The notes beneath the pieces were generated by a model. The model had not been told where the DNA came from and ran no database searches. It saw only the letters and a program-made list of their open reading frames with translations. From an uncultured Alphaproteobacteria bacterium (GTDB taxonomy: Bacteria > Pseudomonadota > Alphaproteobacteria > Rs-D84), in NCBI GenBank assembly GCA_944389555.1, contig CALXMU010000002.1, positions 30,271-94,270 of the forward strand: a stretch of 64,000 nucleotides of DNA, given 5' to 3'. Numbering within the stretch: the stretch's first letter is position 1; each line of letters opens with the position of its first letter. This document shows positions 4,457 through 24,000 of the stretch, piece after piece. Made by a program: the position numbers and the translations under genes.

Positions 4457-4574
4457 ATTGTACCTTTTTCTTTGCCTCTCTCTTTCAAGATAGTAATACA
4501 TTTTTATGGTTTGTCAATGTTATTTAGTCGTTCTGTAAAATGAGAGGATTTGTGCTTGATATAGCAATAATTGT

Positions 4575-7204: not shown

Positions 7205-7483
7205 ATGAAACGAATATTTATTTTAATTATGGCGATTGCGCCGATTGGCGCATTTGCCGCCGCACCGTCAACGTCGTGTCCCGCTGGATATGTTACCGTG
7301 GTGGAAGAATATATGGAAATCGCGAACAGCACGTGTCCCGCTGGATATACATCCGCCGGCGTGGCGGACAGTTGTCTGGCGTCGTCACCAGCCGGTTCGT
7401 GCATAATGTATGCGCCAACCGGGGTAACTTATACCGACAGCAGTGGTTCATATGAATTTACGTCCGCCTGTCCATTGGAATAA
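7205..7483 (+). CDS. Small secreted Cys-rich protein with duplicated CPAGY motif
   Basis: Signal peptide MKRIFILIMAIAPIGAFA; starts 12 bp after the 6770 gene; exact 16-bp repeat at 7276-7291 and 7333-7348. Confidence 0.8.
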   Translation: MKRIFILIMAIAPIGAFAAAPSTSCPAGYVTVVEEYMEIANSTCPAGYTSAGVADSCLASSPAGSCIMYAPTGVTYTDSSGSYEFTSACPLE

Positions 7484-7484
7484 G

Positions 7485-7508
7485 CAAAACGCCCAAATGG
7501 GCGTTTTG
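7485..7508. terminator. Bidirectional intrinsic terminator
   Basis: CAAAACGCCC-AAAT-GGGCGTTTTG between convergent genes. Confidence 0.8.
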
Positions 7509-8369
7509 TTATCTGGTACGTTGTAATATCACAATCATTTCTGAATTGACATTTGTTTTGTCTTTGCGTATGCAGCCAATACGAGCCCAGCGTTTGAATT
7601 TTTTTACAGCATCACGATATGCCGTAATTTTGTGCGCTATACCCCAGTTGCCGGTTTGGGCTATTATCGTGCCACCCGGACGGACGTGGTTGCGCAACGA
7701 CGCCAATGTCTGGTGTATTTGTTGCGGGGTCATATATTCAAATATATTTGACAGATTTATTGTATCGTATTCACCGATCAGATGTGTGTGCAATGATTTT
7801 ATATCCGACCATATGAATTTGAACGGTTCGTGTATTTTGTTACGCATTTGGGCATATTCGTCGTCTGTTGGTACAATATTCGCATAGTACGACGGGTTTA
7901 ATCCGTTACTGAATATGGGATAATCCGCCATTTGCTTTATAAAATATGCGCTGTTTTGCGGAATGTCATCAATCAATGTTCCGATTTGCTTTATATCCGA
8001 TGCGCGATGTGCGGTATGCATATCGGACAACAGCTGTATATATTCCGCACGGGATAATTTCTTTAACGCAGCGGTTTTAATGTCCATTGCCGCTTTGGCA
8101 CAGAAAGACAGGTCGAATGTATCGATTTTTGTTGCGCCGCGCATAGCATAAAACATAGGATGATCACCAGACGCCGCAACGGTCAAAACGCGCGGACCGT
8201 CATTTTTTGTCAGTTCCGATACCCAACGAATATCTTCGTTTGTCAGGACGTACGACGGGGAATAGTTTGAAAAGCCCAACATTTGATTATAAAATGTTGT
8301 GCCGTTCCCGCCGATAATGTATTCAGCGTGGGCATTGTCAATATTTAATCTTGGTGTTGCGTATTTCAT
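7509..8369 (-). CDS. Class I SAM-dependent transferase-like protein (DUF3419/BtaA-like)
   Basis: RVLTVAASGD Gly-loop, IDTFD, YDTINLSNIFEYM, VRPGGTII; family assignment by eye. Confidence 0.6.
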   Translation of the reverse strand: MKYATPRLNIDNAHAEYIIGGNGTTFYNQMLGFSNYSPSYVLTNEDIRWVSELTKNDGPRVLTVAASGDHPMFYAMRGATKIDTFDLSFCAKAAMDIKTAALKKLSRAEYIQLLSDMHTAHRASDIKQIGTLIDDIPQNSAYFIKQMADYPIFSNGLNPSYYANIVPTDDEYAQMRNKIHEPFKFIWSDIKSLHTHLIGEYDTINLSNIFEYMTPQQIHQTLASLRNHVRPGGTIIAQTGNWGIAHKITAYRDAVKKFKRWARIGCIRKDKTNVNSEMIVILQRTR

Positions 8370-8530
8370 TTCGCTCCCTCAGTTATTCTTTACTCAATAT
8401 TATATAGTACAAAATAACCGATTGTCAATATCTGGCGTTTTTTATGTTAAAAATATAATTGCGACAGAAAAAATGCTTTCAATAAATTCATTAAATGTGA
8501 TAAAATCTGATAAATAGGAAGGGCCTTTTT

Positions 8531-11497
8531 ATGAAAAAAATTGCAATTTTTTGTGCCTTGTTGATGGGGATAAGTTTTAATGCAGATGCTGCAACAGCAC
8601 GAAATCCGCGTGGTGTGGCCGAAAGCTCTGATTCTGCGGCAAGCACAACTGTTGCGCGTAGTGCGACTGTAAGTCGTAGTGCAACAAATACCAGATCTGC
8701 TACACCAGCGGCGACAGCGGCGCGTTCTGCAACTGTCGGTCGTAATACTGTGAGTCGTACACCCACCGCAACGACAGCAACTACTGCTACTAATGCAGCG
8801 CGTAGTGCAACTGTAACTGCGCGTGCCGGTACCACACAGAAGGTTATAAATACGGGTACAAGTGTTGCAGCGGCGAATGAGAATGTTGTCGTTAGCGAGG
8901 CTTGCCGTCAGAAATACTACGGTTGTATGGATTCTTTCTGTATGCTTGATAACGATAGTGGTGGTCGTTGTATTTGTAGTGATAAAAATGCCGAATACGA
9001 TGAAATTTTGGCACAAATTGAAGAATTAGATCTGCAATCTTATCAAATGGCGACATATGGCGTTGAAAGAATAGAAATGGGCGACGCTGCAGATGTTGCA
9101 ATTGCTAATGCAAATGCTGTGGCTCAGTCAATTATGGATGAGGCTTCAAAAGAAGAAGAAAAAAAATCTTTGGATTTAACATCTTGGTTGTCTGGCGTTG
9201 ACTTTACAGAAGATAATATTTTCGCAGACACGGAAGGTTTCCAGAGCCCTATTGAAGGTAAAGAGGGTGATGCTTTATATCGTGCCTCTCATGAAATTTG
9301 TATTGAACAGATGCCTGAATGCGCAAATGAAATTTCTATGTTGCAGTTGATGTATGCACAGCAAATAAGAAGTGATTGCAGCGCATATGAAAATAGTTTA
9401 AAGCAGCAGAAAAATGCAAGTGCTCAAAAGTTATACGTTGCGGAACAAGCGTTGCGTGACGCGGCGTTGGAACAGTACCAAAGCGCAAATAAATATGATT
9501 TGGGGCAGTGTACGGTAGAATTTAAAAATTGTATGATAACAACTGGTGGATGTGGGGACGACTTTTCAGGTTGCGCTTCAATAGCGGCATTCGATTCGAC
9601 AAGTACGCGCGGAAATAAAAAAGCAGATACGTATGAAATTCAAGGTACTGTGACAAGTATCGAAATTCAAGAATCTACATATGATATATTGCTATCTAAA
9701 AAGCCTTTGTGCGAAGGCGTTACAAAGCAGTGTCAATTAGTGGCAGATCAAGTTTGGGATACGTTCTTAAAAGAAGTTGCGCCTCAGGTGAAGTCAGCAG
9801 AACTTATCGCAGAAGATAATGCTCGTCAGAATTGCATTGGAAACATCTCTTCGTGCTTCCAAAAAGCATGTAAAGATACAATGGATCCAAATGATCCAGA
9901 CGGCTCATATGATATGTGCTTGACCAGACCTGAAACAATGTTGAATTTATGCCAGGTTCCATTAAATGCGTGTGGTATTTCAACCACATCTGCATCAAAA
10001 GCGCAAGAATCCGATATTTGGGATTTTGTTGTTGCAAGATTGGCATCAATGAGAGTGAATTCTTGTTCAACTCAATTTAAGGAATGTTTGCAATCAGCAG
10101 ATCGATGCGGTGAAGATTATTCTCAGTGTATTGGTCTTGATACAGATACAATTATGCGTTTGTGTCCGTATGATACATTGGTTGGGTGTCAGCAAGTATA
10201 TGGTGAAACAGATATTCGCGGAGAGGCCGTTTATGACGAACTGTATAATGTTGCTCAGGGTATTTTCTTAAATATAGACAATAACCTGTTGGAACAGTGC
10301 CAGAATGCCGCAAATGAAGCAATGATTAAAGTTTGTGGTGATGCAGAAAGTTGTAATAACCTGACCGTTGATGATAATATCGGTGCTCGTTCACTTGAAT
10401 ATAAGATTTGTGAATATAGTAATAGTAATGACAGCTTAGATATAAATTATTCATTATGCAGAACGGATATTTCGCAAATTATGGATAGCGAACTAGGGCG
10501 TGTAGACGATGGCTCTACTGCAACACTTGGGGCGGTAAAACCGTTTGCAGGTGTCATAGATGGAATCATATATTGGGAAAGTGTTGAAATAGGTGATGAT
10601 GGCCGCCTGATAAGTGTTGATAAATATTTAGATAATATTGGTGAGGCCGCCAATGATACAACAGAAACCCAAAAAGAACAAATTGCCTCTGAATTGGCTG
10701 TTTTGCAAAGTAGTATAGATACGGCAATCAATGCTATAGAGGCAGACCCAGAAGTTCAATTCTGTATGAGTGGGCGTACAATTGACGGTGTAAATAATAG
10801 AAATGTTGTTGACCGTAGTAATGATACAGCTGGACGTTTCCCAGGATTGACGAAACAAATGCGTATGATAATCGCCAATGCCGCATTGAAGGCCGCAAAA
10901 GATAATTATTATAAGAAATATGATGAATTGAATGAAAAGATGCTGAAAGATTATGCAACATTGGGTGAACGAATGGCAGAAATTCAAGGTGAAAATGCTT
11001 TGGATGCCAGAAGAGAAATTGCACGTGAAGCATGTGTGAATTTCGCAGAGTTATCCAGTTTACCGAAATCCCCTAATCCGCCAAAAGGCGCGTTTGGTAA
11101 GATTTTGTCGGCAGTTGCGATAACCGCTGCGGCCGTGGCGATACCGTTTACAGCAGGGTCTTCGGCACTTCTATTAGCGGGTGCAACGACTTGGGCTTCT
11201 GGTGCGGTTGCTGCGGGTGCTGGTGCGGTTGCTGGAATCGGTTTACTTGGTAATGCTGGGTCGGGTGGTGCGAACGGCGCCGATGCGTCCGCACAGTTAG
11301 ATTTAGTTGGTTCAAAGCAATTGAATCAATGGAATTACAAGGAAACAATTACTTCAACATTTGAATGGGATACTTTGGTATGTCATAAGTGCACAAGAAC
11401 ACAACAATGTACAAAAACAAAGAGTCCTTGGTTCGGTAATAAGTATTGTAAAACATGGGCTGACCCAGTTGAAATTTGTGTGGATACCCAGTTCTAA
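8531..11497 (+). CDS. Large secreted Cys-rich protein (988 aa), family member
   Basis: Signal peptide; ARSAT-repeat linker; CRQKYYGCMDSFC...RCICS; ANKYDLGQC; hydrophobic Gly/Ala segment near the C-terminus. Confidence 0.9.
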   Translation: MKKIAIFCALLMGISFNADAATARNPRGVAESSDSAASTTVARSATVSRSATNTRSATPAATAARSATVGRNTVSRTPTATTATTATNAARSATVTARAGTTQKVINTGTSVAAANENVVVSEACRQKYYGCMDSFCMLDNDSGGRCICSDKNAEYDEILAQIEELDLQSYQMATYGVERIEMGDAADVAIANANAVAQSIMDEASKEEEKKSLDLTSWLSGVDFTEDNIFADTEGFQSPIEGKEGDALYRASHEICIEQMPECANEISMLQLMYAQQIRSDCSAYENSLKQQKNASAQKLYVAEQALRDAALEQYQSANKYDLGQCTVEFKNCMITTGGCGDDFSGCASIAAFDSTSTRGNKKADTYEIQGTVTSIEIQESTYDILLSKKPLCEGVTKQCQLVADQVWDTFLKEVAPQVKSAELIAEDNARQNCIGNISSCFQKACKDTMDPNDPDGSYDMCLTRPETMLNLCQVPLNACGISTTSASKAQESDIWDFVVARLASMRVNSCSTQFKECLQSADRCGEDYSQCIGLDTDTIMRLCPYDTLVGCQQVYGETDIRGEAVYDELYNVAQGIFLNIDNNLLEQCQNAANEAMIKVCGDAESCNNLTVDDNIGARSLEYKICEYSNSNDSLDINYSLCRTDISQIMDSELGRVDDGSTATLGAVKPFAGVIDGIIYWESVEIGDDGRLISVDKYLDNIGEAANDTTETQKEQIASELAVLQSSIDTAINAIEADPEVQFCMSGRTIDGVNNRNVVDRSNDTAGRFPGLTKQMRMIIANAALKAAKDNYYKKYDELNEKMLKDYATLGERMAEIQGENALDARREIAREACVNFAELSSLPKSPNPPKGAFGKILSAVAITAAAVAIPFTAGSSALLLAGATTWASGAVAAGAGAVAGIGLLGNAGSGGANGADASAQLDLVGSKQLNQWNYKETITSTFEWDTLVCHKCTRTQQCTKTKSPWFGNKYCKTWADPVEICVDTQF

Positions 11498-11529
11498 AAT
11501 AAAACCGCCAAACGGCGGTTTTATTTTAG
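11494..11529. terminator. Bidirectional terminator containing both convergent stop codons
   Basis: Perfect 16-bp inverted repeat CTAAAATAAAACCGCC-AAAC-GGCGGTTTTATTTTAG. Confidence 0.85.
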
Positions 11530-12504
11530 CTCGTCTAAATTAGTTATAACCATAACCCCTTTTTCAGACCATTCGGAAATTCGCGATTCTAAATCTAATA
11601 TGTTTGTCTGACCTAAGTATAATATCGGGCGTAAACCACGTTCGGTTCCAATCGTTAATACTTTTTCTACAGGTGAAGGTTTCAGCTTACCAGACGCAAA
11701 CCATGCTTCGTTATCTGCAACCCAAAAATCAGGGTCGTTGTGCGCGGCAATTACATCCTGTGTTGTGACTATAATCCCGTCTTCTATTGAGAATTCTTTA
11801 TTTTGGGATTTCAGGTATTCTTTTATTGGCAGCAAATCATCAATTTCTTGTCGCGGCTGCTTTTCTTCTTCTGCTGTATCATCATCAAAATTTATATCCG
11901 AAAAAACAGGAACAAAAGATGGTGTGTCTGAATCAAACATACTTTCACTAAAATCATCTGGTATCGGAAAATCTTCAGACGCTAAGTCATTTTGCCCTTG
12001 TTCAGATGGAGTTTGTGGTTGAGGTGCCGCTTTATTAGACATATTGCCGATGTCAAAGTTTGATTTAGGGGCAGGACCTATATGTGCGCGTGCACGTATA
12101 AACGCATGACGTAATTCTGTCGGAAGTATTTTCTGGGGTTCTTCTTTAATAATACTTTCTTCGGTTTCTTCTATTTCTTTTTCGTCATCTTCTTTGGGTG
12201 TGACATTCTCGTCTAAAACAGGCTGCATAAATTTTGGAATCTTAGGCGTAATTAAAGGTTTCTTTGTCCTGATTATTATTGATGTTGTCGCAACATACAT
12301 AGGAATTGCCGCCAAAATCAATATGCCGAAAACAAATCCTGGGAAACCACGTAGTTTCGCGTGTGCTAAAATAACCCAGTTGCGCATGACGAACATGTCA
12401 AAGTTAAAAAGCCATTTTAATATACACCACATAATCAGGATATAACACATGGTCCATATAATGGCGTATTTGTGGGCCTTGAAAAAATCTAGGACTTTAT
12501 TCAT
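11521..12504 (-). CDS. Hypothetical membrane protein (N-terminal TM helices, acidic linker)
   Basis: 327-aa ORF, hydrophobic N-terminus, TTGACA-N16-TATAAT upstream on the minus strand. Confidence 0.75.
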   Translation of the reverse strand: MNKVLDFFKAHKYAIIWTMCYILIMWCILKWLFNFDMFVMRNWVILAHAKLRGFPGFVFGILILAAIPMYVATTSIIIRTKKPLITPKIPKFMQPVLDENVTPKEDDEKEIEETEESIIKEEPQKILPTELRHAFIRARAHIGPAPKSNFDIGNMSNKAAPQPQTPSEQGQNDLASEDFPIPDDFSESMFDSDTPSFVPVFSDINFDDDTAEEEKQPRQEIDDLLPIKEYLKSQNKEFSIEDGIIVTTQDVIAAHNDPDFWVADNEAWFASGKLKPSPVEKVLTIGTERGLRPILYLGQTNILDLESRISEWSEKGVMVITNLDELK

Positions 12505-12639
12505 CGTTATAAATTATAGACAGTGTATAATATTTGTCAATATTTATCTTGGTTTAAGTAAGAATATGTCTAAAAAATACTTTTTTTTATGCGTTGTTTA
12601 GGGTATAATTATAAAGATAGATTATAAGGGGGAGTTCTT

Positions 12640-14727
12640 ATGCGTTCGTGGTTAAAGTTATTTGGTACATATTTTGTTGGTGTGGGGATTTGTGCCTTTG
12701 TTGGAAATGTGTATGCGGCGACCCCTACGGGAAGGGCTGATTACAGTAATGTTGCTCAATTAAATCGGGCAGGGGCCACAACTTCTGCTTCGTCACAACG
12801 TATGCCGACTATGCCGACTTTACCCAACTTTACAGTTGGAAATATGTCGCCGAATTTACCGTCGGTTACGCCAAGTTATCCTGATAACCCTGATAATCCT
12901 GATGAACCAGATGAACCAACCTCTGAATGTCCTGACGGGGGCGTAAAAGATTCTGAATATACCGTTGATAATTGTATGAATGATATTGAAATGTGCATAA
13001 ATACCGGCGCGTTACCAAACGGTATAAATGATATGTTTAATGAAGATTTACGTAATTCCATTGTGAACGGTATGAACTTGTGCGCCACGCAGGTGGAAAG
13101 ATGTATAGCAGAAGTTCGTAAAAATTGTTCTTATGTTTATCGTTCTTCGGCGGATGTTTGGATCGATTTTAATTCACGTAAAGTACAACCTGCTTATTAC
13201 AACTTTGTATTGCGCAAAACGGGTTTAACACCTAATCAGGCAGAAAACACCTGTCTGTTACTAGATGTTAATACTTATGGTTCCGCTTTCACTGCCGTAT
13301 CTAATGCGGGTGGTGTTACGGCTGAATATAATATTGGTGTGGGGGCATACAATAGCCAAAATGGTAATGTTCTTATAAAGAATAATCCGCAAGGCGTTGA
13401 ATTGAATTACGGAAATTCTGGTGTTGATGGTCAGCGCGGTCATTATGCTCGTTGGGATCCAACAACTGCAGAATGTTGGATTCGCGTTGCAGCCTATAAT
13501 AAAGACAATCAAATTAAAAATAGTTGGTTGTTCGGCGCAGCGGGGGACGATCAACCGGCAGAAGTATGGCGTTTGGCGGGCGATACATTTACATGTAATC
13601 GGGATTTGTTTGGTTTCTCGTTGATGAATAAAACAAGTACCGCAGCAGTTGTAGGTATTGGTGGTGGTGCTGTTGTTGGTGCCGGCGTCGGCGCGATTGC
13701 AGGTCATGGTGCGCGTGATTTTGATTGCTCGTTGGATAAGCATCGTGAATTATTGACCGAAGAATTACGGACAGATGCTAATTTCGGTTCAATAAGTGAA
13801 TATTTAGAAGAAACAATTCCTGCAAATGTGGACGTTATGACAAGAAATCAATGTGAAGAAGTCGTTGATTTGTATAACAGATATATTCAGGTAAAAGAAG
13901 CTTTGAAGAAGTGCAATACAATTGAAGTATCTGGGACAGATGTTTCTATTTATTCTCAGGTAGAGGCTAGTTGTAAAAACTTTACAAGTTTAGAAGATTG
14001 CTTTAAGGGAATTGATATATTGCAACCTTGCATCGGTAAGGGATATACCGATTTGAAGCAATGCACAGACTTTGTCGCGCAACAAAACGCAAATAATGCG
14101 GCATCTCAATTAGAAGGAAGTGCGATTACGGAAGAAAACGAATTCTGTTCTTTCCAACCTCTAAACTTGGCTCGTGCTCGTGGGGAAAGCATATATTGTA
14201 ATTCTGGGGAAACTGGGTGTATAGATTCCGTTAGAATCGAAGTAGACGTTGAACGTTTGGATAAGATTTTCAACAGTGATATTGAAGATTTGTTAAGAAA
14301 TGGTGAGGAATCTAATATCGGTAAAAGCATTGCTATTGGTACAGGTGTCGGTGTCGGCGCAGGTGGTTTGGCAACTGCAATTACCGCATTCGTTGAACGC
14401 AGCAACATAAGTTGTCATGTGGGTGACGGTTTGGCACAGGTTGGATATGGTAAGTCTTATTCTATAGAATCCTTAAAAGACTTCTATGTAAAATGGAATT
14501 TGAATTTACCAGATACAATAACACCGACAGGAACGGCCGTTGATTGTGATTCTTGGAAACGTGCATGTGGGACAATAAAAGACTTAAATCAATGTAAATC
14601 TGCACAAATAAACTATAAACCGGCAGATGCAGCAACGATAACATTGGTTCCTACGGCTTGCACAGTATCGGGCAGCGCGTGTATAGAAAACTATCCTGTC
14701 GCAAAGTCTTATGGTGCTTGTGAGTAA
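12640..14727 (+). CDS. Secreted Cys-rich protein with two glycine-zipper segments (695 aa)
   Basis: Signal peptide; PDNPDNPDEPDEP linker; GIGGGAVVGAGVGAIAG and GTGVGVGAGGLATAITA. Confidence 0.85.
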   Translation: MRSWLKLFGTYFVGVGICAFVGNVYAATPTGRADYSNVAQLNRAGATTSASSQRMPTMPTLPNFTVGNMSPNLPSVTPSYPDNPDNPDEPDEPTSECPDGGVKDSEYTVDNCMNDIEMCINTGALPNGINDMFNEDLRNSIVNGMNLCATQVERCIAEVRKNCSYVYRSSADVWIDFNSRKVQPAYYNFVLRKTGLTPNQAENTCLLLDVNTYGSAFTAVSNAGGVTAEYNIGVGAYNSQNGNVLIKNNPQGVELNYGNSGVDGQRGHYARWDPTTAECWIRVAAYNKDNQIKNSWLFGAAGDDQPAEVWRLAGDTFTCNRDLFGFSLMNKTSTAAVVGIGGGAVVGAGVGAIAGHGARDFDCSLDKHRELLTEELRTDANFGSISEYLEETIPANVDVMTRNQCEEVVDLYNRYIQVKEALKKCNTIEVSGTDVSIYSQVEASCKNFTSLEDCFKGIDILQPCIGKGYTDLKQCTDFVAQQNANNAASQLEGSAITEENEFCSFQPLNLARARGESIYCNSGETGCIDSVRIEVDVERLDKIFNSDIEDLLRNGEESNIGKSIAIGTGVGVGAGGLATAITAFVERSNISCHVGDGLAQVGYGKSYSIESLKDFYVKWNLNLPDTITPTGTAVDCDSWKRACGTIKDLNQCKSAQINYKPADAATITLVPTACTVSGSACIENYPVAKSYGACE

Positions 14728-14747
14728 TAAGAAATTAAAAGGTGTTC

Positions 14748-14776
14748 AAAAATCCCGCTTAGATGCGGGATTTTTT
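14748..14776 (+). terminator. Intrinsic terminator
   Basis: AAAAATCCCGC-TTAGAT-GCGGGATTTTTT. Confidence 0.8.
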
Positions 14777-14981
14777 ATGTTCGCTTGTTTTTGTAATAAT
14801 GTAACACTTAACCATATATATAATATCAATATTTAATCTAATGAATTGTGATGAGTAAGAGAAGATATATATTATTTTTTGTAATGTAATATTACTTATA
14901 TAAATCAATAAAGTTGATTGTTTTATATTGTTATAAGTGAAAGAAACCCCACAAAACTTTGTGGGGAAAATAAAAGCTTTT

Positions 14982-17438
14982 TTATGATTGGCAAGAACTA
15001 TTAGACATTTTTACCTCAACCTTGCGGCAACTTTTATCATAAGTTTTGTCACTTTCGCATTGAGATGAACCGACACCTTTTGCAGTTATATTATTGCTTT
15101 GTATACCACTTGATACTAAGGCTTTCTTTACCGCTTCGGCACGTTTTTCTGATAAAGGAATATTTACCGCGTCAGAACCACTTTTATCGGTATGACCAGT
15201 AATAGAAATGCAATAATTTGTGTCGTCTTTCATTACGTTTTTGACTTCTGTGGCGAAAGTATTTAAGGTTTGCTTTGCCTCTGACGTCAGTTCATACGAA
15301 TTTAATTCAAACATGTTTCCTGTGGATAAAGTTATAGGTTGTATAATTTCTTCAATGGCTATATCTATAACTGTTGTCGGAGTTTCTGGCGCTTTTTCTA
15401 CGCATTTTCCGTCTGAATTGACCTCATGTGTATCCGTTGGGCATTCGCACTTTGGTAATTGGTCTTTACTTAGACTATATCCATCAATACATGTACACTC
15501 ACCAGTAGTTTCATCAACAGTTACGTGACCTGCTGTTGTATCACATTTTGCGGTAACTTCTGGTTGGGGCGTTACGCATGTGTCATTCGCACTTGGAATT
15601 GTTCCTGGCGCACAGTCACATATGTTGTTTATTGCGACTTTATCACCCGGACATGCTTCGCATAAATTCGTATTGGCATTGTGAATATATTTATTATTTG
15701 TACATGAACAATTGGGGTAGGTACCAGTTGAATCAGACGGACATTTTGCCGTTAATTCTGTGTCAGGTAGTTTAGCGGTATTATCGCGCAATTTTTTTAG
15801 CGGTTCATATTTTGCAATAATTTCAGCAGAAATTTCTTTTGGTTTATCACCGACTTCATTTATCAGAACATTTCCAACAACACCGACAAGTGCTCCGGCG
15901 CCCGCAACAATTGCACCAGTTTTTAATTGCGATGATGTATCTGCTTTCTGTGCGGCCCATTCTGCTGCATCTGCACTATTTTCATCCATTAAAGCACGTG
16001 ATAAAGATGTAAATGCACCGTCTGTTATACCCGTGGCAGCGTTATCATATAAACCGGACGTTGCCGCATCCAGTACAACTTCTGATTCTATACCAGGGGT
16101 CATACCTAGGGCTTCTTTACGTACTTTTAAATCTGCGGCTAAACTTGTATACTCGTTGTATATAGGTAACAGTACGTTTGCACCTGGTAAGGTTATATTA
16201 GACTCGCCGCCTTGGATGGTTGCACCTTGTCCATAATCACATTTGAAAGTTGCTAAATATGCAGCCATTTCACGTTCGGTATCTGCATCAGCGTTTTGTT
16301 CCGCTAATGCGGAAGCGACTTGCATGCCACCAATTCCCATAGAACCTATACTAGCGGCACCTAGTAATTTATTCGCAGTTGACTGCTCTTTTTCTTTCAT
16401 GGCATCGGCATTTTTTTGCAAGTCTGCAATCTTTGCTTTTGAATCTTCTTCAGATAAAGTTGGGGTTATGCAAGATTTTTTGTCGTTACTTACGCTATAA
16501 CCATCTTTACAAGAATCAATGATACAAACTTCTGCGTTAATAGTGGCGTCCCATTCACGATGTGCGGATACAGCGTTTTCCGGCATAGGATTACAGTTCC
16601 CAGAAATGGCAACGCACTTACCGTTAGAAGGTTCGTATCCCCCCTCGCATTCCGTCGCATAACAGATAGCATCTTTTAATTCGCCAGCAGTTGCATGCTC
16701 TATTTTCGCTAACTGTTCAGTAGAGCAAGGACCTTCACTGACAATACAAGCAGAACCATCGTCGTTTGGTATATACCCGTCATTACATTTTTTTATTTCA
16801 CATATAAGTTGGTTGTTTTCCCATTTGTATTCAGCAGCCTTATAGTTTGGGTCGTTTGCAGTACATTTTTGTCCGACTTGGTCTTCGCAATGTGTGCCAA
16901 CAATAATCTCTTCGCACTGTACGCCCTCACAAACTTCGCTGCTTTTATTAAAGGCTATCAATTTATTATTTCTGTATGCTTGTTTTGTTCCCACCAATTT
17001 GTAACGTTCAGATGCACATTCAATAACATAGCATGTTTGAGTATCTATATCTTTTACTACTTCTTTTTCATTTTGCTTTGGTTCACATTGCTGCACTTTT
17101 TGTGCAGTTACAACAACGGTTTCTAGTTCTGTGTCTGGTTGCAATGTTATTTCAAGTTCATCACCGAGAGATACAATTTGATCTTTATAACCTACATAAG
17201 AAACTTCTAATTTAGCATCGTCAGATATATTATCTGTGTTTACGTTTATAGAGAAAACGCCATCAAGATTTGTTGAAGCGCCTGTTGTAGTGCCTGTAAT
17301 CATAACCGCGGCGCCAATTAAAGGATTATTATTTTCATCTAACACTTTGCCAGAAATTGTAGATAATTCTGCTCTTGCCGATGATAGCGTTGGCAGGATA
17401 AATAATAATGTAAAGATGCTTACTAAATGTTTTTTCAT
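14982..17438 (-). CDS. Multidomain protein: carboxypeptidase-regulatory-like N-domain, Cys-rich repeats, glycine zippers, OmpA-like C-terminal domain
   Basis: ISGKVLDENNNPLIGAAV...LEVSYVGY...LETVVVTA; C-terminal FELNSYEL...ITGHTDKSG...LSEKRAEAV. Confidence 0.85.
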   Translation of the reverse strand: MKKHLVSIFTLLFILPTLSSARAELSTISGKVLDENNNPLIGAAVMITGTTTGASTNLDGVFSINVNTDNISDDAKLEVSYVGYKDQIVSLGDELEITLQPDTELETVVVTAQKVQQCEPKQNEKEVVKDIDTQTCYVIECASERYKLVGTKQAYRNNKLIAFNKSSEVCEGVQCEEIIVGTHCEDQVGQKCTANDPNYKAAEYKWENNQLICEIKKCNDGYIPNDDGSACIVSEGPCSTEQLAKIEHATAGELKDAICYATECEGGYEPSNGKCVAISGNCNPMPENAVSAHREWDATINAEVCIIDSCKDGYSVSNDKKSCITPTLSEEDSKAKIADLQKNADAMKEKEQSTANKLLGAASIGSMGIGGMQVASALAEQNADADTEREMAAYLATFKCDYGQGATIQGGESNITLPGANVLLPIYNEYTSLAADLKVRKEALGMTPGIESEVVLDAATSGLYDNAATGITDGAFTSLSRALMDENSADAAEWAAQKADTSSQLKTGAIVAGAGALVGVVGNVLINEVGDKPKEISAEIIAKYEPLKKLRDNTAKLPDTELTAKCPSDSTGTYPNCSCTNNKYIHNANTNLCEACPGDKVAINNICDCAPGTIPSANDTCVTPQPEVTAKCDTTAGHVTVDETTGECTCIDGYSLSKDQLPKCECPTDTHEVNSDGKCVEKAPETPTTVIDIAIEEIIQPITLSTGNMFELNSYELTSEAKQTLNTFATEVKNVMKDDTNYCISITGHTDKSGSDAVNIPLSEKRAEAVKKALVSSGIQSNNITAKGVGSSQCESDKTYDKSCRKVEVKMSNSSCQS

Positions 17439-17448
17439 TGTTTATCTT

Positions 17449-19209
17449 TTAACGTGCTGTTACTCCGCGTGTGGTTACACTTCTTGTAGTTTCATTTGCG
17501 TTTAATAAATTGATAGAAGTATTTGTTTTAAGTGCTTGTGATAAGTCGGTATTAAGCTTTGTTACACATTTGCCGTTTTCAAGTTTTTGGTTTACACCGC
17601 ATTCACAAACACCTGTGGTCGTATTAAATGTACCACCATTAGAACAGATACAATTTAAACTACTGCTATTCCAAATGCCTCCTGCAATTTTACAACGATT
17701 TTCCATTTCGTTATGTGGGATAGAGGTATCTTTTTTGCAACCTCCCATAAAGTCATCGTATATTTCTCCATCTGGACATTTAGGTTCTTTACAGAAATTA
17801 TTTTCCCATGTGCCGCCAGTTGCTTCACACTTTTTCTGAAGTTCTTCGTAGGTGGGGCGCTCATTATTAGCGCTGTCTTTTTTGTCTGATTTATCTTCTT
17901 CGGTACTTTGGGTTTTTGTGTCTTTTTTATCGTCTTCTTCAGCAGACGCATTACCATAATTTTCTTCGTGTTCTTTTTCTGCGTCCTTTAGCGCGTTTTC
18001 TGCTTTTTGACGATCTATGGCACGGCTAATCGCACCAGATGTAATCGCACCTGCCGCAACACCTAAACCAGAACCCAGTAAGGCAGATGATGCAGATGTT
18101 TGTTCGCGGGTTAAACGATAAGCATTTTCCATAAATGTCGTTACATCTATACCAAACCAATTGGGGGTGCAACTGAATACATCACCGGCGTACAATTTTT
18201 TAGACGCATATAACGTAGCGTCGTCCCCAGCATAGAAGTTTACCGTAAATACGCAACTGAATGTACGTTCATCAAACATTGCGCCAAGACTTGTACATTG
18301 CTGTGCCATTTGGTCGCGTAACTCGTACAAGCGTTCTTCATCTTTCTGAATTTGAACCTCTGCATCTTGACGTAGATTTGCAAAAACTTGCATTGCTCGA
18401 CTGGCCAAACCGCTGTCTTGCTGTACACAGTTGTCGGCAATGGTTTTACATTTTGCGATTGCGGCGTCACCGGCAGTCTTACCAAGGCATTTACTGAACG
18501 TTTCTCCGCATTCTGTCATAATGCAATTGTTATATTGATTCCCGCAGTTTATTACGGCATTATAAGATGCCAAACGAGCATTCATATCGCGGTCAGCTTT
18601 TATTTCAGCGGCAAACAGTCTGTATTCTTCACCCGTACAATCCAATTGAAGACGGCAAGATTCCATTTTGTTGCCCCAAGATGTATCTGTATCACCGCTG
18701 CATTGCGTAAAATCTTGACCACATTTATTTTGCATACAGGTACGTAGCCCTGCGTCACACGCGTTAACGCTGCCTGATTGCGTTTTTTGTGTGGCTGTAG
18801 TTATTGCAGATTGCGCGTCAAGTTCTGCGCGTTGCTGACGGACAAGTTCCGCAAGATTATCAGCAGAAGAATCTGTTTGGGGGGTGCCCGAAGAAGATAA
18901 TACTGCATCAAATTGAGATGATTTATTCTCAATAATTTCTTCTGTTTCCGTTACGGTTTCAGTTTCAGGTTCTTCTTCTGTTTCGCTTGTTTCATTCGTA
19001 CTGGTTGTTGCGCTTACAGTTGTTGTCGGCATGCGGCCAATATTGCTTCGAGTAGAGGTATTAACTGTCGGGCGAGACGATGCGCCTGTACTACGGGATA
19101 CAACAGCGGCCCCTTGGGCACTAAAAGCAAGTAATGCAAGCATAGTTGCGCATAAAGTTATACGAACTGTAAAATAATCTTTATAAAAATTACGTTGCGT
19201 TGTATTCAT
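17449..19209 (-). CDS. Secreted Cys-rich protein with glycine zipper and acidic/Lys linker (586 aa)
   Basis: CDAGLRTCMQNKCG, LYAGDVFSCTPNWFG, LLGSGLGVAAGAITSG, EGF-like Cys tail; 10 bp from the 14982 gene. Confidence 0.85.
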   Translation of the reverse strand: MNTTQRNFYKDYFTVRITLCATMLALLAFSAQGAAVVSRSTGASSRPTVNTSTRSNIGRMPTTTVSATTSTNETSETEEEPETETVTETEEIIENKSSQFDAVLSSSGTPQTDSSADNLAELVRQQRAELDAQSAITTATQKTQSGSVNACDAGLRTCMQNKCGQDFTQCSGDTDTSWGNKMESCRLQLDCTGEEYRLFAAEIKADRDMNARLASYNAVINCGNQYNNCIMTECGETFSKCLGKTAGDAAIAKCKTIADNCVQQDSGLASRAMQVFANLRQDAEVQIQKDEERLYELRDQMAQQCTSLGAMFDERTFSCVFTVNFYAGDDATLYASKKLYAGDVFSCTPNWFGIDVTTFMENAYRLTREQTSASSALLGSGLGVAAGAITSGAISRAIDRQKAENALKDAEKEHEENYGNASAEEDDKKDTKTQSTEEDKSDKKDSANNERPTYEELQKKCEATGGTWENNFCKEPKCPDGEIYDDFMGGCKKDTSIPHNEMENRCKIAGGIWNSSSLNCICSNGGTFNTTTGVCECGVNQKLENGKCVTKLNTDLSQALKTNTSINLLNANETTRSVTTRGVTAR

Positions 19210-19218
19210 TTCTTCTGT

Positions 19219-20088
19219 TTATTCTAGTACATCACATGCTACGTCATAAAAGTTACAAAATAGAGTTGCAGTTGCGCGTTCTGATGCATATCCTGCTTCA
19301 CATTTATTCGGCATGCTTCGTTGACATATAGTTTCTATGCAATTTTCTAATGCGGCATCATCTTTGCAAGAAGCCTGAGCAGATAATAATTTCTGTTCGC
19401 GAGCATTTTGATAACTTGCCACAATGCTTTCTATTAAAATATCAGCGTTCTTTATTGCCGTGTCTCGTGCATTTGTCAGATTAGTACGAATGTCAGCAAT
19501 ATAATTAGCGCAACCAGTTGCTTCTACGCTGCATGCCGAAAAGAAATTATTAAAGCTGCTAGCGTCTTCACAGGCGCTATAATCTGATCCGCATCTTTTA
19601 TCTTCTATCATACAAGCCCGAATCGATGATAAGCAAGTTGAAGCACTGGCGGTTTGCTTATTTGCATCGGCAATCGTTGACGCCATTTGGGCGCTAACGC
19701 CTGCCGCACGACAAGATTGTTCTATCAATTCATCATATACGTCAGAAACGTCGTCCGCCGTGCAACCTTCAACTTTTTCAATACAGCGTCTTGCAGCCCA
19801 TATATAGCGTTGACCAGGATCCGATGGAGCGTCTTCTAATTCATCTTCTGTAATCGTGTATCGTGCAGATAATCCTAATGATAAAGCACGCATACCAGAT
19901 GAAGCAGGCGGTGTTCCGGCGTTTGCACTGCCGCAATATTGACATCTGGCTGCAGGATTCGAGGATATGTTTATCGCACATACGGAATCCAGACAACGCG
20001 TTAAATTCATTTGGGAACACGTGGCCGCCAACGTGACGCTGGGGCAGGTCATTAAAATACAAATAAAAAATAGGCTACTTTTTTTCAT
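19219..20088 (-). CDS. Secreted Cys-rich protein (289 aa), first gene of a 3-gene minus-strand operon
   Basis: Signal peptide; LTRCLDSVC...RCQYC resembles the family CMDxFC motif. Confidence 0.85.
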   Translation of the reverse strand: MKKSSLFFICILMTCPSVTLAATCSQMNLTRCLDSVCAINISSNPAARCQYCGSANAGTPPASSGMRALSLGLSARYTITEDELEDAPSDPGQRYIWAARRCIEKVEGCTADDVSDVYDELIEQSCRAAGVSAQMASTIADANKQTASASTCLSSIRACMIEDKRCGSDYSACEDASSFNNFFSACSVEATGCANYIADIRTNLTNARDTAIKNADILIESIVASYQNAREQKLLSAQASCKDDAALENCIETICQRSMPNKCEAGYASERATATLFCNFYDVACDVLE

Positions 20089-20171: not shown

Positions 20172-20200
20172 TTGACAAAATAATATATTTGTCTTATATT
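20172..20200 (+). promoter_or_regulatory. sigma70-like promoter
   Basis: TTGACA-N17-TATATT, 28 bp before the 20229 ATG. Confidence 0.65.
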
Positions 20201-20228: not shown

Positions 20229-20936
20229 ATGAATTGGGACAAAGTTATCTCTTATGGGTCAGGGGTTATCGCAACAGTTGCGTTTGCTGTCGTTTGTATA
20301 AATGCTTGCTCTGACCGTAATAAAGATATAGAAAATTTAAAAAAAGCCAATGAAACAATAAAAAGTGCTAGCGAAGCAGTTGAAAAAAGTCGGAAAATAA
20401 TAAAAATTCTTGATGAAGAGAACGAAGCTTTACGTGATTCTGTTACAATGTGGCGTGATTCAACGGCAATCTACCGCGATTCAACGGCGTTTTATAAAGA
20501 TGCTTGGCAAGATTGTGAAAAGGGTAAAAGGTGTGTAAGAAAAACTACGCCGGTTAAAACAAAACCTGTGCCTATAGTAACACCAAAACCTGTTCGCCCA
20601 GCAGAACCGAAGAAAGAAAATTGTTCAAATAATGACAACGTTACGAAAATTGATGTACGTGACAATTCCGTAAATAATGGAAATATAATTGTTAGCAATG
20701 ATAATAATGGTAACAGTAATACCGAAATTACTCTTGGAAATGGCGCTGTCAACGAAGGTAACATTGTTGTGAATAACGGTGGTAATGTGACAATCAATGG
20801 TGATAATAATTGTGCAATTGATTCTTTACGTAATGTGGTTGATTCTTTGAAACAAAATACCGCAAAAGGAAATTATGCCGCCGCATCAAGCGTTGTGGTT
20901 CTGAGAAAAGTGAAGACTTATCGTCGTACTCGTTAA
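20229..20936 (+). CDS. Hypothetical membrane-anchored protein (coiled coil, Pro linker, Asn-rich beta-repeat)
   Basis: N-terminal hydrophobic helix; 3 x RDS heptad; NNGNI/NEGNI repeats. Confidence 0.75.
   Translation: MNWDKVISYGSGVIATVAFAVVCINACSDRNKDIENLKKANETIKSASEAVEKSRKIIKILDEENEALRDSVTMWRDSTAIYRDSTAFYKDAWQDCEKGKRCVRKTTPVKTKPVPIVTPKPVRPAEPKKENCSNNDNVTKIDVRDNSVNNGNIIVSNDNNGNSNTEITLGNGAVNEGNIVVNNGGNVTINGDNNCAIDSLRNVVDSLKQNTAKGNYAAASSVVVLRKVKTYRRTR
20433..20495 (+). repeat. 3 x 21-bp in-frame tandem repeat (RDSxxxx)
   Basis: cgtgattctgttacaatgtgg / cgtgattcaacggcaatctac / cgcgattcaacggcgttttat. Confidence 0.75.
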
Positions 20937-20954
20937 GTTATTACGTGATTTATT

Positions 20955-20986
20955 CACCCCGAGTTATGTGCTCGGGGTGTTTTTTT
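20955..20986 (+). terminator. Intrinsic terminator
   Basis: CACCCCGAG-TTATGTG-CTCGGGGTG-TTTTTTT. Confidence 0.85.
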
Positions 20987-21052
20987 AGAAAGTTTTTTCT
21001 AGACATATAATTTAGATGTATGTTAAAATAATTCGCATAGAGAGAATTGTTT

Positions 21053-24000
21053 ATGAAATACATCAGATTATTATTATTAGCATTATTTTTAATTCCCGCT
21101 GGTTCTTTTGCAGCAAGTTCTACTAATAATGAGTTTATGGTTGCTGCTCAATTATTGTCTGCGGCAAAAAATGCCGATATTCAGCAAGTTCAGATTCTGA
21201 TAAATAGTGGTGCAAATGTAAATTATGTTGATAGTACGGGTTTGTCTTTGGTTTGTACGGCATTGATGAATAATGATATTCGTGCTGCGCAAATTTTGCA
21301 GATGTATGGTGCAGATGCTTCTCAATGTGACAGGCAAATAAAGCAATATGAATCTAGAAATAAGCCCGAAAGTAGTGGGGGGCTGTTTAGCGGATTATCC
21401 TCCGCCCATACGATTTCTTTGGCGGCGGCGGGAGCCGCCGTTGTTGTAGGTGGGCTTTTTTTATTAACTGATTGGTTGGACCCTGGTAACGAAAATAGTG
21501 GTGGTTCATCAAGTGAAAATCGTCCTGGCGGTGATGGCGGTGGAAGCGGTGGTGATAGTGAAGTTATCGTTTCAGAGGCAATTCCTGTGGGACCCGCATA
21601 TTTTACTTCTAGCGGTGAAATTTCTTATTCAGAGGCTCAATATCAATCAAATCTAGCGCAATGGGACCCAAGTGCTGGTGGAGTACGAGAAGCAGATTTT
21701 AATTATTTTAGACCGACAGAACAACCGACGAATAATTATATTATAGATGGTATTGCCGTCCCATTACAAAATTATTTGTTGATTATGCATGGGTATTCTT
21801 CTTTCGCAAACGGTTATATGGGGCAGACGACGTTTCGCGATGCTTCACATAATCCAATTAAAGTCTTAAATGAAACAGGTGGGGGAAAACCTATTCTTAC
21901 TACGTTGATTACGGCAAATGGGATAAATCCAACTGGTTCTGCAGAACGTACAGTCGAAGGTATTACTTGGTCTGATTCAACGGCTGCTACATCAAATACG
22001 TATACGTCTGATAAATATGCTAATTATAATAATCCGTCTGGTAATAATTTGGGAAATGAAATAGCTGGTTTTGATTTATCTGGCAGCGGTACAGCAATGA
22101 ATCCTTTCGCAACGGCAACGGAAACTGCGCTGGCAAAGATTATAGGCGGGTGGGAAGCTGGTGGGCGTGCTTATGGCGATTTATACGGTTTTACTCCGAA
22201 TGGGCAGTTAGCAGTATATAGAACAGGCGGTGGCGGTAAATGGGTGGATGTAGAAAAACCGACCGAAGGTGCCGTTGTAGGGACTTTGACAGATTCTGGT
22301 ACTGCTGGGACAGCCGGTGTTATTAATACTGGGGATACGATAACGATAAACGGGGTGACATACACTATATCGTCTGCATTGGATGATGCAGGGGTTACCA
22401 ATCCTACAATTACAATAGGTGATACAACCTATAAACTTGGTGCAGGCAGCAATTTGTTAAAAGGTTCTTGTACAGGTGATAATTGCGAAGACGTTTCTGA
22501 TATAGCTATTTATCAAGGTACTGATGGTTATTATTATGTAAATACTTCTGGTGGCGATAAACCTGATGCGGTTTATGTTATAAATAATAATAATATATAT
22601 ACTCAAAAAGAATGGCAGGAATCTGACGTTAGAAATTATGAGGCGATATATAACGCTAGAACAAATGGTTCAAGCGTAATTGCAAACGCAACTTTAAATC
22701 CAGACTCTCGGCAAGTTTCATATACTAATATCGGTGAAATAGAGTCCTATTTTGCTTTGGGTGGGGATTCAAACAAGAAAATATTGTTTGGAAATTTGAT
22801 AAATAATTATTATGAAAAAGATTCTAGTGACGCAACAAGTCAGGGGGGATATGCTAACTCGATATTTAATGGATATAATAACACTTTGCCGATATTGGTA
22901 AACCCGGCCGGTGAGTTTGCTTGGGGGCAGGGTGAAGGTAAAACAATGAATGTTTTAGATGCAACGTTTGAAAACTATGCACCTGCTTTATACGATTCTA
23001 ATTTAGAACACATGTTTATGACTATCGTCGCTGTTCAGCATTCTAAAGGAACTTCTAATGCGGATAGTATTTCTGGATATGGAAATGGAACGGGCAGTGA
23101 TTATGGTCCTTTATATTTATCTATGTGGAAAGACAGCGAAGGTAATCAATATATGTCCAGAAAATGTGGTGTTGCGGGTTTAGGGATAAATGGTGTTGAT
23201 CCATGGTGTTTCTCAGCGGCAGGACCAACGGCAGAAATGGCAACGGCATCTGCAGCGGGGGCCGTGGCCGCATTAAAAGGCGCCTTTAATTATATGTCTA
23301 ATACAGATATATTCATATTGATGGCGTTGACGGCAGATGGTCCTTATTTGGGAACTGATAGCGCAGGAAATGCTTTCACTGTTGATAGTTTGGTTAGTTA
23401 TCTAAAGAATATGTATTCTTTGCCGCCTGATTATCATTCTGACCAACTGTTTGGGCAAGATTATCTTGATGCGTTTGCAGAAGTATACGGTTATGGTATG
23501 ATAAACTTAGAGCGTGCTATGAAGCCTGGTAATAAAATTTATTTCTATGACGGGAATACAATTGTTTCGGATAATGGTAATGCATATTGGCGCGCAGCAT
23601 CAAATACTATATTCCGTGCGTCGTCAGCGTTTAGTCCTTCTACTGCGAAAATTAGCGCACCTTTTTATGACATCGTAGAAAGTTTAGACGGTGAAATTTC
23701 TTTACCAAGAATTTGGAAAAATGAGTTTGCTTTGGGGGCTTCCAGCAGGCGCGGTTTATATATGGGTGATGTTCTTGGTGAATTTAAGACACGTAACGAT
23801 GCGACAGAGCGCGTGCAGTTTGGTAATTTTGGTTTTTCTATGTCTTTGTCTGAAAAACCGTATGCCGATAACTTAGACGGTTTGGATAATATGGAATTAG
23901 ATTATACGTATGGTAATTGGAATTTTGCAGCTAGTTATCAAAGGCATTTTACAGATGGGGCATCTAGGTTTGATGGTATGTCCAACCCGATTTTAGGTTT

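Follow-up and report, generated by a model that had tools for sequence, protein, structure and literature searches.

The 64-kb window analysed here (the whole stretch of 64,000 nucleotides, from contig CALXMU010000002.1) belongs to Candidatus Enterousia (Alphaproteobacteria, order Rs-D84) and carries two gene clusters, cluster 1 and cluster 2, that encode exported proteins dense in Cys (Table 1). We call the six proteins of cluster 1 A, M, B, C, D and E; five of them, and the cluster-2 paralogues of A, are without relatives in the curated family and structure libraries that we searched. We tentatively read the two clusters together as a lineage-specific, disulfide-stapled, multi-protein envelope assembly anchored to peptidoglycan, which would probably be the main envelope-spanning contact and/or uptake structure of this bacterium. 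We rate the system as falling outside every known kind and its function as only predicted; the names "surface machine" and "pore" are plausible but unproven.

Cysteine-rich exported proteins of the two clusters

An original prediction, made from the letters of positions 8531-20088, had described six open reading frames there, five of them for Cys-dense proteins of secreted type and one for a membrane protein. All six are present with exact coordinates. The five proteins A, B, C, D and E start with N-terminal signal-peptide-like segments and contain 39, 27, 37, 26 and 22 Cys, respectively. This corresponds to 3.9-7.6% of their residues, 5-10 times above the background of the other 38 window proteins (0.71% on average). 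The commonest spacing between consecutive Cys in A, D, E and the related cluster-2 proteins is C-x6-C, which accounts for 46 of ~150 gaps. We counted 11 such pairs in A, 5 in D, 6 in E and 5 in B, against 1.5, 1.05, 1.6 and 1.0 in shuffled sequences, counts that were reached by 0, 7, 4 and 5 of 2000 shuffles, respectively (an enrichment given as 5-7 fold); in C the spacing is not over-represented relative to shuffles. A ~22-residue module, C-x3-[FY]-x2-C-[ML]-x3-5-C-G-x-[DN]-[FYW]-x2-C, is present in three copies in A, two in D, one or two in E and also in cluster-2 proteins. B has the C-x6-C pairs only, and the Cys of C are arranged in different, EGF-like repeats. The CxxxYxxCMDxFC domains of the original prediction exist literally in A (at C125) and in the cluster-2 paralogues and are absent from B, C, D and E; the module of D and E, C-x6-C-[ML]-x4-6-C-G-x-D-[FY]-x2-C, is a related one.

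The Cys are strongly conserved. Nearly all of the 38 mature Cys of A are at least 96% conserved, also in comparison with paralogues that are 22-35% identical, and 21 Cys columns are invariant in a 70-sequence alignment. None of the 20 mature Cys of E or of the 15 Cys of the D core varies among orthologues at 40-76% identity. The window also encodes a DsbA-like thiol oxidoreductase with a CPYC motif, kept in the <1 Mb genome of an anaerobe, and a PpiD/SurA-like chaperone; no DsbB/VKOR partner was seen in the window. The DsbA-like protein is the likely disulfide catalyst for the cluster proteins, as an accessory encoded outside the cluster. Invariant Cys, signal peptides and the window-encoded CPYC protein together make structural disulfides the natural reading and support the extracytoplasmic location that had been claimed. 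Since the Cys are mostly even in number and locally paired within C-x6-C modules, they suggest intramolecular staples, in which i/i+7 pairs would lie on one face of a helix and tie it to another helix. The odd number of Cys in the D core and the single Cys of the C centre (C400) would allow an intermolecular D-C disulfide, which is speculative. Four more small proteins with signal peptides encoded in the window are Cys-dense (5-10%) and gave no family match where scanned, and the Enterousia genome seems to be generally rich in Cys-dense exported proteins.

A and the three large proteins of cluster 2 (c2_856, c2_811 and c2_850) belong to one superfamily, as judged from a collinear Cys pattern and from blastp E values of 2e-138 to 3e-23 among the four. 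The pattern consists of C-x3-[FY]-x2-C-M-D-x-F-C near the N-terminus followed by C-x6-C-x4-6-C-G-x-D-[FY]-x2-C modules. E is probably a short member of the superfamily, a "mini-A": in an hhalign comparison, residues 93-286 of E were collinear with residues 248-482 of A over 190 columns (E=9.9e-5, probability 58%). The comparison of D with A and E by the same method found the Cys module alone in common (probability 27-37%), and by profile-profile comparison B is unrelated to the superfamily. Paralogues within the A family are 22-35% identical, while cluster-2 orthologues in several loci are 48-72% identical. One locus (L034) contains a tandem duplicate of A, at 7262-13173. The reading frame called for c2_811 overlaps infA (38946-39200, minus strand) by 134 nt. 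Its start lies probably near 39346, giving a protein of ~718 aa, because the orthologues have ~717 aa and a signal peptide begins at Met94. infA lies between two divergent Cys-rich genes in the window and in loci L041 and L031.

A starts with its signal peptide and a disordered leader rich in S, T, A and R (residues 21-118), followed by disulfide-rich helical bundles (119-610 and 696-845) separated by a small beta domain (~611-695), a hydrophobic Gly/Ala segment (846-925) and a Cys-rich C-terminal beta domain of five strands (926-988). The AlphaFold2 model, built from the 70-sequence alignment, has a mean pLDDT of 64.9 with 70-90 in the folded core. It shows helices of 48-67 residues, the small beta domain at ~622-678 and the five-strand C-terminal domain, and leaves the leader and the Gly/Ala segment disordered. 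The leaders of D and c2_856 are, like that of A, acid-poor low-complexity sequences rich in S, T, A and R.

C is the only subunit of cluster 1 with recognisable domains. An N-terminal extension resembling CarboxypepD_reg (27-110) leads to a TonB-box-like strand and a variable number of EGF-like Cys repeats; a conserved centre (331-529) with two Gly/Ala segments and the one invariant Cys, C400, is followed by more Cys repeats and an OmpA-like domain (709-797). The OmpA domain matches PF00691 with 68.2 bits (cut-off 27.2, E 8.3e-19; model positions 1-87 of 98), as expected from the peptidoglycan anchor that had been claimed for one of the proteins. The N-terminal extension matches CarbopepD_reg_2 (PF13715) over the whole model at residues 28-110 (positions 1-88 of 88; 58.2 bits, cut-off 32.2, E 8.5e-16), and residues 27-117 match positions 2-90 of the 981 positions of the SusC/RagA model TIGR04056 (E=1.8e-20). 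Such a module is typical of Bacteroidota transporters and is found here in an alphaproteobacterial protein that is not a barrel. As a full-length SusC/RagA transporter C falls short, reaching 72.9 of the 368 bits required. Most of 19 aligned sequences conserve the strand L-[DEN]-x-V-V-V-T-A, which occupies the place where SusC-type proteins have a TonB box; no TonB gene was found in the 64-kb window. Orthologues of C have 595-1236 aa and 23-81 Cys, the repeat number varying and the centre being conserved.

B is built from an N-domain (97-331) and a C-domain (585-695) that enclose two Gly/Ala segments (332-356 and 563-584) and a middle domain (357-562). In this order along the protein, identity is 0.80 in the N-domain, 0.86 in the first Gly/Ala segment, 0.38 in the middle, 0.82 in the second segment and 0.78 in the C-domain, and the hypervariable middle keeps its Cys (Cys identity 0.89). 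D has a leader rich in S, T and R, an acidic stretch, a conserved core (119-375) in which two Cys modules lie and 15 Cys are invariant, a Gly/Ala segment (376-395), and then a hypervariable charged region and lineage-specific C-terminal Cys repeats (identity 0.11). Even the nearest orthologues share at most 83% amino-acid identity, so that synonymous sites in the hypervariable domains are likely to be saturated. M is Cys-poor (0-5 Cys in orthologues) and has two strong transmembrane helices (15-33 and 60-78; dG -0.6 and +0.8), a linker that is acidic and variable, and a conserved domain at the C-terminus (236-327); the positive-inside rule suggests a cytoplasmic location for its large C-terminal part. 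The B leader contains RMPTMPT (residues 54-60), with R[ML]PT in 66 of 76 B homologues, and the D leader contains RMPT (residues 59-62; R-[ML]-P-T in 20 of 28), in both proteins ~30 residues past the signal peptide. As a signal common to all subunits this motif was rejected, as it is conserved in B and D only and not in A (7 of 70), C or E. Several D orthologues have C-terminal tails that end in similar basic sequences of the T-R-G-V type. The leader motif and the basic tails may act as a shared docking or sorting signal.

Gly/Ala-rich hydrophobic segments, originally reported in four of the five secreted proteins, are present in A (853-910), B (332-356 and 563-584), C (358-380 and 507-529) and D (376-395). 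Their identities are among the highest of the proteins (0.86 and 0.82 in B, 0.74 in D, 0.73 in C), which indicates functional elements and not linkers. They are marginally hydrophobic, with approximate summed Hessa dG values of +2.3 to +3.5 kcal/mol, compared with -4.0, -5.2 and -0.6 for the single-pass anchors of the DsbA-like protein, the MotB-like protein and M in the same window. Cys-rich domains flank the segments on both sides in B, C and D, which, together with a cleaved signal peptide, does not fit a simple topology spanning the inner membrane. Both the dG sums and the Cys on either side weaken the idea of ordinary inner-membrane helices. We infer that the segments are located at the outer membrane or within it, or at interfaces between proteins. 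Among the paralogues, c2_811 has a Gly/Ala segment inserted elsewhere, which scores 20.2 bits with Gly-zipper_Omp (cut-off 25), and c2_850 has none below the dG threshold.

Gene layout and conservation across species

The genes of cluster 1 and the two genes beyond E, F and G (Table 1), form the apparent transcription units [A], [M], [B], [E-D-C], [F] and [G]. The three minus-strand genes are spaced as predicted, with TAA, 9 nt and ATG between E and D and TAA, 10 nt and ATG between D and C.

Table 1. Genes and transcription signals of the two clusters and of their surroundings in the window
Feature	Position	Strand	Description
A	8531-11497	+	988 aa; open reading frame
M	11521-12504	-	327 aa; open reading frame
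B	12640-14727	+	695 aa; open reading frame
C	14982-17438	-	818 aa; open reading frame
D	17449-19209	-	586 aa; open reading frame
E	19219-20088	-	289 aa; open reading frame; first gene of the E-D-C unit
F	20229-20936	+	235 aa; open reading frame
G	21047-24760	+	1237 aa; open reading frame
c2_235	35480-36187	-	cluster 2; 235 aa
c2_856	36262-38832	-	cluster 2; 856 aa; A paralogue (blastp against A, 3e-23)
c2_811	39067-41502	+	cluster 2; A paralogue (blastp against A, 2e-47); true start probably ~39346
c2_850	41513-44065	+	cluster 2; 850 aa; A paralogue (blastp against A, 2e-138)
Sigma-70-type promoter	12513-12540	-	TTGACA-16-TATAAT, 12/12 consensus; directly 5' of M, in the divergent M/B intergenic region
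Terminator-like hairpin	14947-14966	-	8 bp stem, 5 GC pairs, T-run; just 3' of C, ends the E-D-C unit
F promoter	20172-20200		11/12 consensus
F terminator	20955-20979
DsbA-like thiol oxidoreductase	48712-49539	+	membrane-anchored; CPYC at residue 124; Pfam DSBA 5.5e-20; N-terminal anchor dG -4.0
Methyltransferase-like gene	7509-8369	-	DUF3419 family, SAM-dependent
Promoter of the methyltransferase-like gene	8399-8428		perfect consensus
Small Cys-dense protein	4052-4501	-	signal peptide
Small Cys-dense protein	6770-7192	+	signal peptide
Small Cys-dense protein	7205-7483	+	signal peptide
Small Cys-dense protein	25213-25755	+	signal peptide; 18 Cys in 180 aa
Choloylglycine (bile-salt) hydrolase family protein	29962-31053	-	signal peptide
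Autotransporter	33169-35439	+	beta-domain E=1.6e-29; passenger with Chlamydia polymorphic-membrane-protein repeat
MotA/MotB-like pair	44610-46487	-	MotA/ExbB/TolQ-type channel (258 aa) and PRK09039-type MotB-like peptidoglycan-binding protein (356 aa, long coiled coil)

By searching the window proteins with tblastn against 81 loci (~80 species-level), we found that the modules [A], [M<>B], [E-D-C] and [F,G] are kept within ~20 kb across ~80 species-level loci and that their order is shuffled (for example in L010, L013, L039, L042 and L055). M and B are an adjacent divergent pair in essentially all loci that hold both. E and D are always adjacent and co-oriented, C is usually next to them, and F and G are usually beside E. 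A usually adjoins M-B, behind rpoA-rplQ and the DUF3419-type methyltransferase gene, which lies just upstream of A in most genomes. The co-conserved multi-gene set that had been predicted is thus kept despite rearrangements. A prophage or mobile-element origin was discarded, given a base composition without marked departure from the rest of the window, the constant position after rpoA-rplQ and the lack of phage families.

Cluster 2 directly adjoins A or A-M-B in L047, L009, L041, L024, L026, L031 and L068. In L047 the genes form a ~22-kb super-cluster in the order D-E, G, methyltransferase gene, A, c2_235-c2_856 and c2_811-c2_850. The direct adjacency in these seven other species argues that both clusters are one system. 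G has a signal peptide, a pair of ankyrin repeats (29-96; E=2e-16 to designed ankyrins in a single-sequence search of the PDB), a transmembrane-like segment (122-140) and ~1000 C-terminal residues without a family match. It is almost always next to E-D(-F) and is a probable part of the system. F combines an N-terminal anchor, a coiled coil and an Asn/Gly-rich repeat and usually travels with E-D; it is an uncertain member of the system.

The autotransporter gene lies immediately upstream of cluster 2. The MotA/MotB-like pair, encoded in an organism reported to be without flagella, adjoins c2_850 in the window, C in L034 (21172-23083) and A in L071 (3253-5181). We did not retain it as a member of the system, since it moves as a block with rpsF-rplI and the three genomes are suggestive only. 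The choloylglycine hydrolase family protein is another gene kept in this minimal gut-symbiont genome.

A and B have more than 1000 and more than 750 homologues, respectively, all without annotation; those with a named source come from gut or rumen metagenome-assembled genomes (MAGs) labelled "Alphaproteobacteria bacterium". For relatives of M outside the clade, an exhaustive phmmer search of 1.84 billion representatives returned 181 clusters, nearly all of them full-length orthologues or fragments. A scan of GTDB species representatives confirmed 356 stretches, from which 77 loci were kept, one of them from a circular MAG of 958,618 bp (OZ007020.1). Except for two evidently mis-binned contigs, all 77 are Candidatus Enterousia or uncultured Alphaproteobacteria/Rickettsiales. 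The two exceptions are labelled Bacteroides fragilis (L025) and Muribaculaceae (L049) and bear Enterousia-type A genes, with rplQ on L025 and C, D and E on L049, hence our view that they are likely mis-binned.

Enterousia is widespread in human, livestock and poultry gut communities (PMC12306168; PMC13196213). The Enterousia/Rs-D84 genomes are smaller than 1 Mb, and the organisms are without respiration and flagella (PMC12306168). Almost all amino-acid, nucleotide and lipid biosynthesis is missing, as are standard transporters for sugars, amino acids and peptides (PMC12306168; PMC13196213). The describers of Enterousia proposed an obligate symbiont or parasite lifestyle (PMC12306168), and the Rs-D84 authors suggested that "hypothetical membrane-bound proteins" might serve in transport or in interaction with other cells (PMC12306168; PMC13196213). 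In the literature on Enterousia, the cluster proteins appear only as anonymous hypotheticals and we found no description of them. At ~20 kb, the two clusters account for ~2% of a genome that is smaller than 1 Mb.

Comparison with known systems

We used thresholds of E<=0.1 for Pfam, 0.01 for NCBIfam, E<=10 for scans of sub-domains and E<=0.001 for Foldseek. A, B, D, E and M gave no match in Pfam, NCBIfam, PHROGs, PADLOC or PDB sequences, the sub-domain scans were also empty, and searches of PDB sequence profiles with their alignments returned chance matches only (E>0.28). Neither F nor, beyond its ankyrin pair, G matched a family in Pfam or NCBIfam. In PHROGs and PADLOC only the OmpA domain of C found matches, to MotB/ZorB-type models, apart from one weak match of the low-complexity A leader to a PHROG of unknown function. 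The model of A found nothing at the threshold in Foldseek searches of PDB and BFVD (TM below ~0.1 on the query). The same is true of the B model against PDB, a result that means little since this model is weak (mean pLDDT 54.6). Among A, M, B, C, D, E, F and G, Pfam and NCBIfam show no family of type IV secretion systems (T4SS; VirB6/TrbL, TraN), Tad or type IV pili, type II secretion systems (T2SS) or S-layers, and among the window proteins scanned we found no ATPase, secretin, pilin or relaxase-type gene, either inside the cluster or beside it. All these searches agree with the original prediction that no named secretion system can be assigned. That prediction had proposed AlphaFold plus Foldseek as a check, and no fold match was found for A (PDB, BFVD) or B (PDB). 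It had also named two observations that would speak against it, a match to a known family and a lack of co-conservation; we tested for both and found neither.

The closest comparisons are analogies or matches of single domains that fail membership tests. Like the chlamydial outer membrane complex (OmcA/OmcB, MOMP, Pmp), the system comprises several exported envelope proteins with ~4-8% Cys in a partner-dependent bacterium with a reduced genome that keeps a DsbA-type enzyme, and an autotransporter with the Pmp repeat is encoded beside cluster 2. However, there is no sequence relationship, the cluster Cys lie in helical C-x6-C modules, the proteins are much larger and include Gly/Ala segments and an OmpA anchor, and Enterousia has normal peptidoglycan and no known developmental cycle. 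In C, Gly-rich hydrophobic segments are joined to a C-terminal OmpA-like domain as in YiaD, and its best NCBIfam match is YiaD_Gzip_OmpA, through the OmpA part only (76.9 bits, cut-off 175). Unlike YiaD, SlyB/Pcp and the Rickettsia 17-kDa antigen, the cluster proteins have no lipobox and are 3-10 times larger, Cys-rich and multi-domain. The N-terminal extension and conserved TonB-box-like strand of C recall SusC/RagA, but C lacks the plug and the 22-strand barrel, the rest of it consisting of Cys repeats, Gly/Ala segments and the OmpA domain.

In Myxococcus TraA/TraB, a stalk of Cys-rich repeats and an OmpA-domain partner mediate contact and the exchange of outer-membrane lipids and proteins, and by analogy the clusters also bring together Cys-rich proteins and an OmpA-domain protein. 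This analogy is attractive because Rs-D84 is reported to be without lipid synthesis (PMC12306168). Only the generic OmpA domain matches TraB, however (32.5 bits, cut-off 700), and there is no PA14 domain, Myxococcus-type Cys repeat or MYXO-CTERM. Finally, the twin-Cx9C and twin-Cx3C proteins of the mitochondrial intermembrane space have Cys pairs on one helix face that staple antiparallel helices, as the i, i+7 pairs apparently do here. The cluster proteins differ from them in the x6 spacing and in being far larger, multi-domain and bacterial, with no sequence similarity and with a Cys connectivity that is predicted.

Proposed mechanism, alternatives and meaning

In the assembly that we tentatively favour, A, B, C, D, E and the A paralogues would be exported by Sec via cleavable signal peptides, and outside the cytoplasm their C-x6-C helices and Cys modules would be locked by intramolecular disulfides, probably through the DsbA-like enzyme. 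The Gly/Ala segments of A, B, C and D could pack together in or at the outer membrane and thereby hold the subunits together, and C would pin the assembly to peptidoglycan, a binding role expected from the OmpA-like domain that it contains. The conservation pattern suggests that the hypervariable parts (the B middle domain, the D C-terminal repeats and the C repeat arrays) may face the outside or a partner. M, invariantly paired with B and the only member that is practically without Cys and predicted to face the cytoplasm, may be a dedicated inner-membrane partner of B in assembly or regulation. The TonB-box-like strand of C could be gripped by an inner-membrane energiser, which is a lead only; this strand and the nearby MotA/ExbB-MotB-like pair hint at energisation from the inner membrane. 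A more elaborate version, which we regard as a long shot, is a gate or contact organelle of a new kind in the outer envelope, in which stapled subunits, held in the outer membrane by zippers and pinned by C, would be actuated through the TonB-box-like strand by a proton-driven stator (e.g. the MotA/ExbB-like and PRK09039 pair). It would replace the classical transporters that are missing and take metabolites, and perhaps lipids, from a partner cell.

Several points weigh against a contact or uptake assembly in the outer envelope. Synteny can persist in a very small genome without functional linkage. The cluster contains no energiser, ATPase or outer-membrane beta-barrel, and since no known route is evident that would bring the proteins to or through the outer membrane, the default assumption is that they are purely periplasmic. 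Embedding in the outer membrane by alpha-helices or Gly zippers is rare. The Hessa sums are approximate and marginal SecY helices score alike; the Pfam glycine-zipper models (Gly-zipper_Omp, Gly-zipper_YMGG, Gly-zipper_OmpA, Rick_17kDa_Anti) gave no match at E<=10 with the seven segments of cluster 1 and G; and AlphaFold left the Gly/Ala segments disordered in the A and B models (pLDDT<50). Also, the C centre between the two Gly/Ala segments is conserved, so the rule that what lies between zippers is exposed and variable does not apply to all subunits. The original prediction of a multi-subunit, wall-anchored surface machine is upheld in part, for its co-conserved set, its extracytoplasmic location and its OmpA anchor. 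The proteins may lie on the cell surface, in the periplasm or at the inner face of the outer membrane, their physical assembly is a prediction, and for a machine the cluster lacks an ATPase or other energiser.

A plausible but less likely alternative, in our view, is a static armour: cross-linked by disulfides, the proteins would form a lattice in the periplasm or outer membrane, stiffening the wall like the chlamydial complex and having no direct role in contact or uptake. The Cys density is similar to that of chlamydial Cys-rich envelope proteins, a DsbA-like enzyme is kept in a minimal genome, C carries a peptidoglycan anchor, and the neighbouring autotransporter has the Chlamydia repeat. 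The odd Cys number in the D core and the lone C400 would permit a cross-link between D and C, and a structural role would agree with how strongly A and B are conserved. The chlamydial outer membrane complex is the background for this alternative (PMC6752827; PMC2229832), and its component OmcB doubles as an adhesin (PMC2229832). However, no chlamydial outer-membrane family (OmcA/OmcB) was among the Pfam matches at E<=0.1, and the mostly even, local pairing of Cys points to staples within proteins. A purely internal lattice would not be expected to have repeat arrays that vary or hypervariable domains with retained Cys, and Enterousia has ordinary peptidoglycan and rod-shape genes, so that extra armour is not obviously needed (PMC12306168). 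Less probable still is that there is no assembly, and that paralogous adhesins or antigens, whether secreted, periplasmic or on the surface, act independently and stay neighbours only through the tiny size and high synteny of the genome. The paralogy of A, c2_850, c2_811, c2_856 and E, as in expanded surface-protein families, agrees with this, as do the promoter or terminator that A, M, B, F and G each apparently have, the shuffling of the modules relative to each other and the tandem A duplicate. Yet the unrelated families B, C, D and M have stayed with the A family in many rearrangements, the units M<>B and E-D-C (the latter with gaps of 9-10 nt) are invariant, and Gly/Ala segments are conserved in four different families. 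The paralogues are also ancient, and cluster-2 orthologues in several loci are at 48-72% identity, which is typical of distinct subunits and not of variable antigens.

We consider it improbable that the proteins are secreted alpha-helical pore-formers or translocators that use their Gly/Ala hairpins to enter a partner or host membrane, even with their long helical bundles, their internal, marginally hydrophobic Gly/Ala segments and a partner-dependent lifestyle without known transporters (PMC12306168). The alpha-pore-forming toxin SmhA was among the Foldseek matches of A, as the best of its class, but with E=3.1, a probability of 0.02 and a TM of 0.05 (0.05-0.11) it is noise. Dense disulfide stapling would oppose the large refolding needed, one subunit is tied to the producer's own peptidoglycan, no secretion system was seen for release across the outer membrane, and the Gly/Ala segment is displaced in c2_811 and absent, at the dG threshold, in c2_850. 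Membrane penetration by pore-forming hairpins, an option raised in the original prediction, found no support: no Pfam zipper model matched the cluster-1 segments, the segments have pLDDT<50, and SmhA was the sole fold match to an alpha-pore-forming toxin. Most improbable of all is a known envelope machine that has diverged past recognition, be it a VirB6/Trb or F-type TraN-like T4SS, a Tad or type IV pilus, a T2SS, an S-layer or Tol-Pal. The envelope location, the peptidoglycan-binding subunit and the recurrent nearby pair of MotA/ExbB-type and MotB-type genes would suit such an origin, and F-type TraN is also Cys-rich. Against it stand the lack of a Pfam or NCBIfam match at E<=0.1 and 0.01 and of any sub-domain match at E<=10, the absence of a PDB sequence-profile match below E=0.28 and of a fold match for A or B, and the absence of ATPase, secretin, pilin and relaxase-type genes in or next to the cluster.

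The envelope assembly proposed here is a concrete candidate for the means by which such a diderm cell obtains its nutrients and depends on others. It is a genus-wide, ~20-kb set of at least 10 exported proteins, apparently strongly promoted as judged from matches to the consensus promoter, with a defined architecture: a peptidoglycan anchor, conserved hydrophobic zipper segments, and hypervariable domains on a Cys scaffold. If these proteins do form an alpha-helical, disulfide-stapled assembly in the outer membrane, the envelope would be built on a principle that is new. Even as armour or adhesins alone, they would remain, for an uncultured gut clade, the dominant surface or envelope antigens specific to the lineage, and would represent new protein folds.

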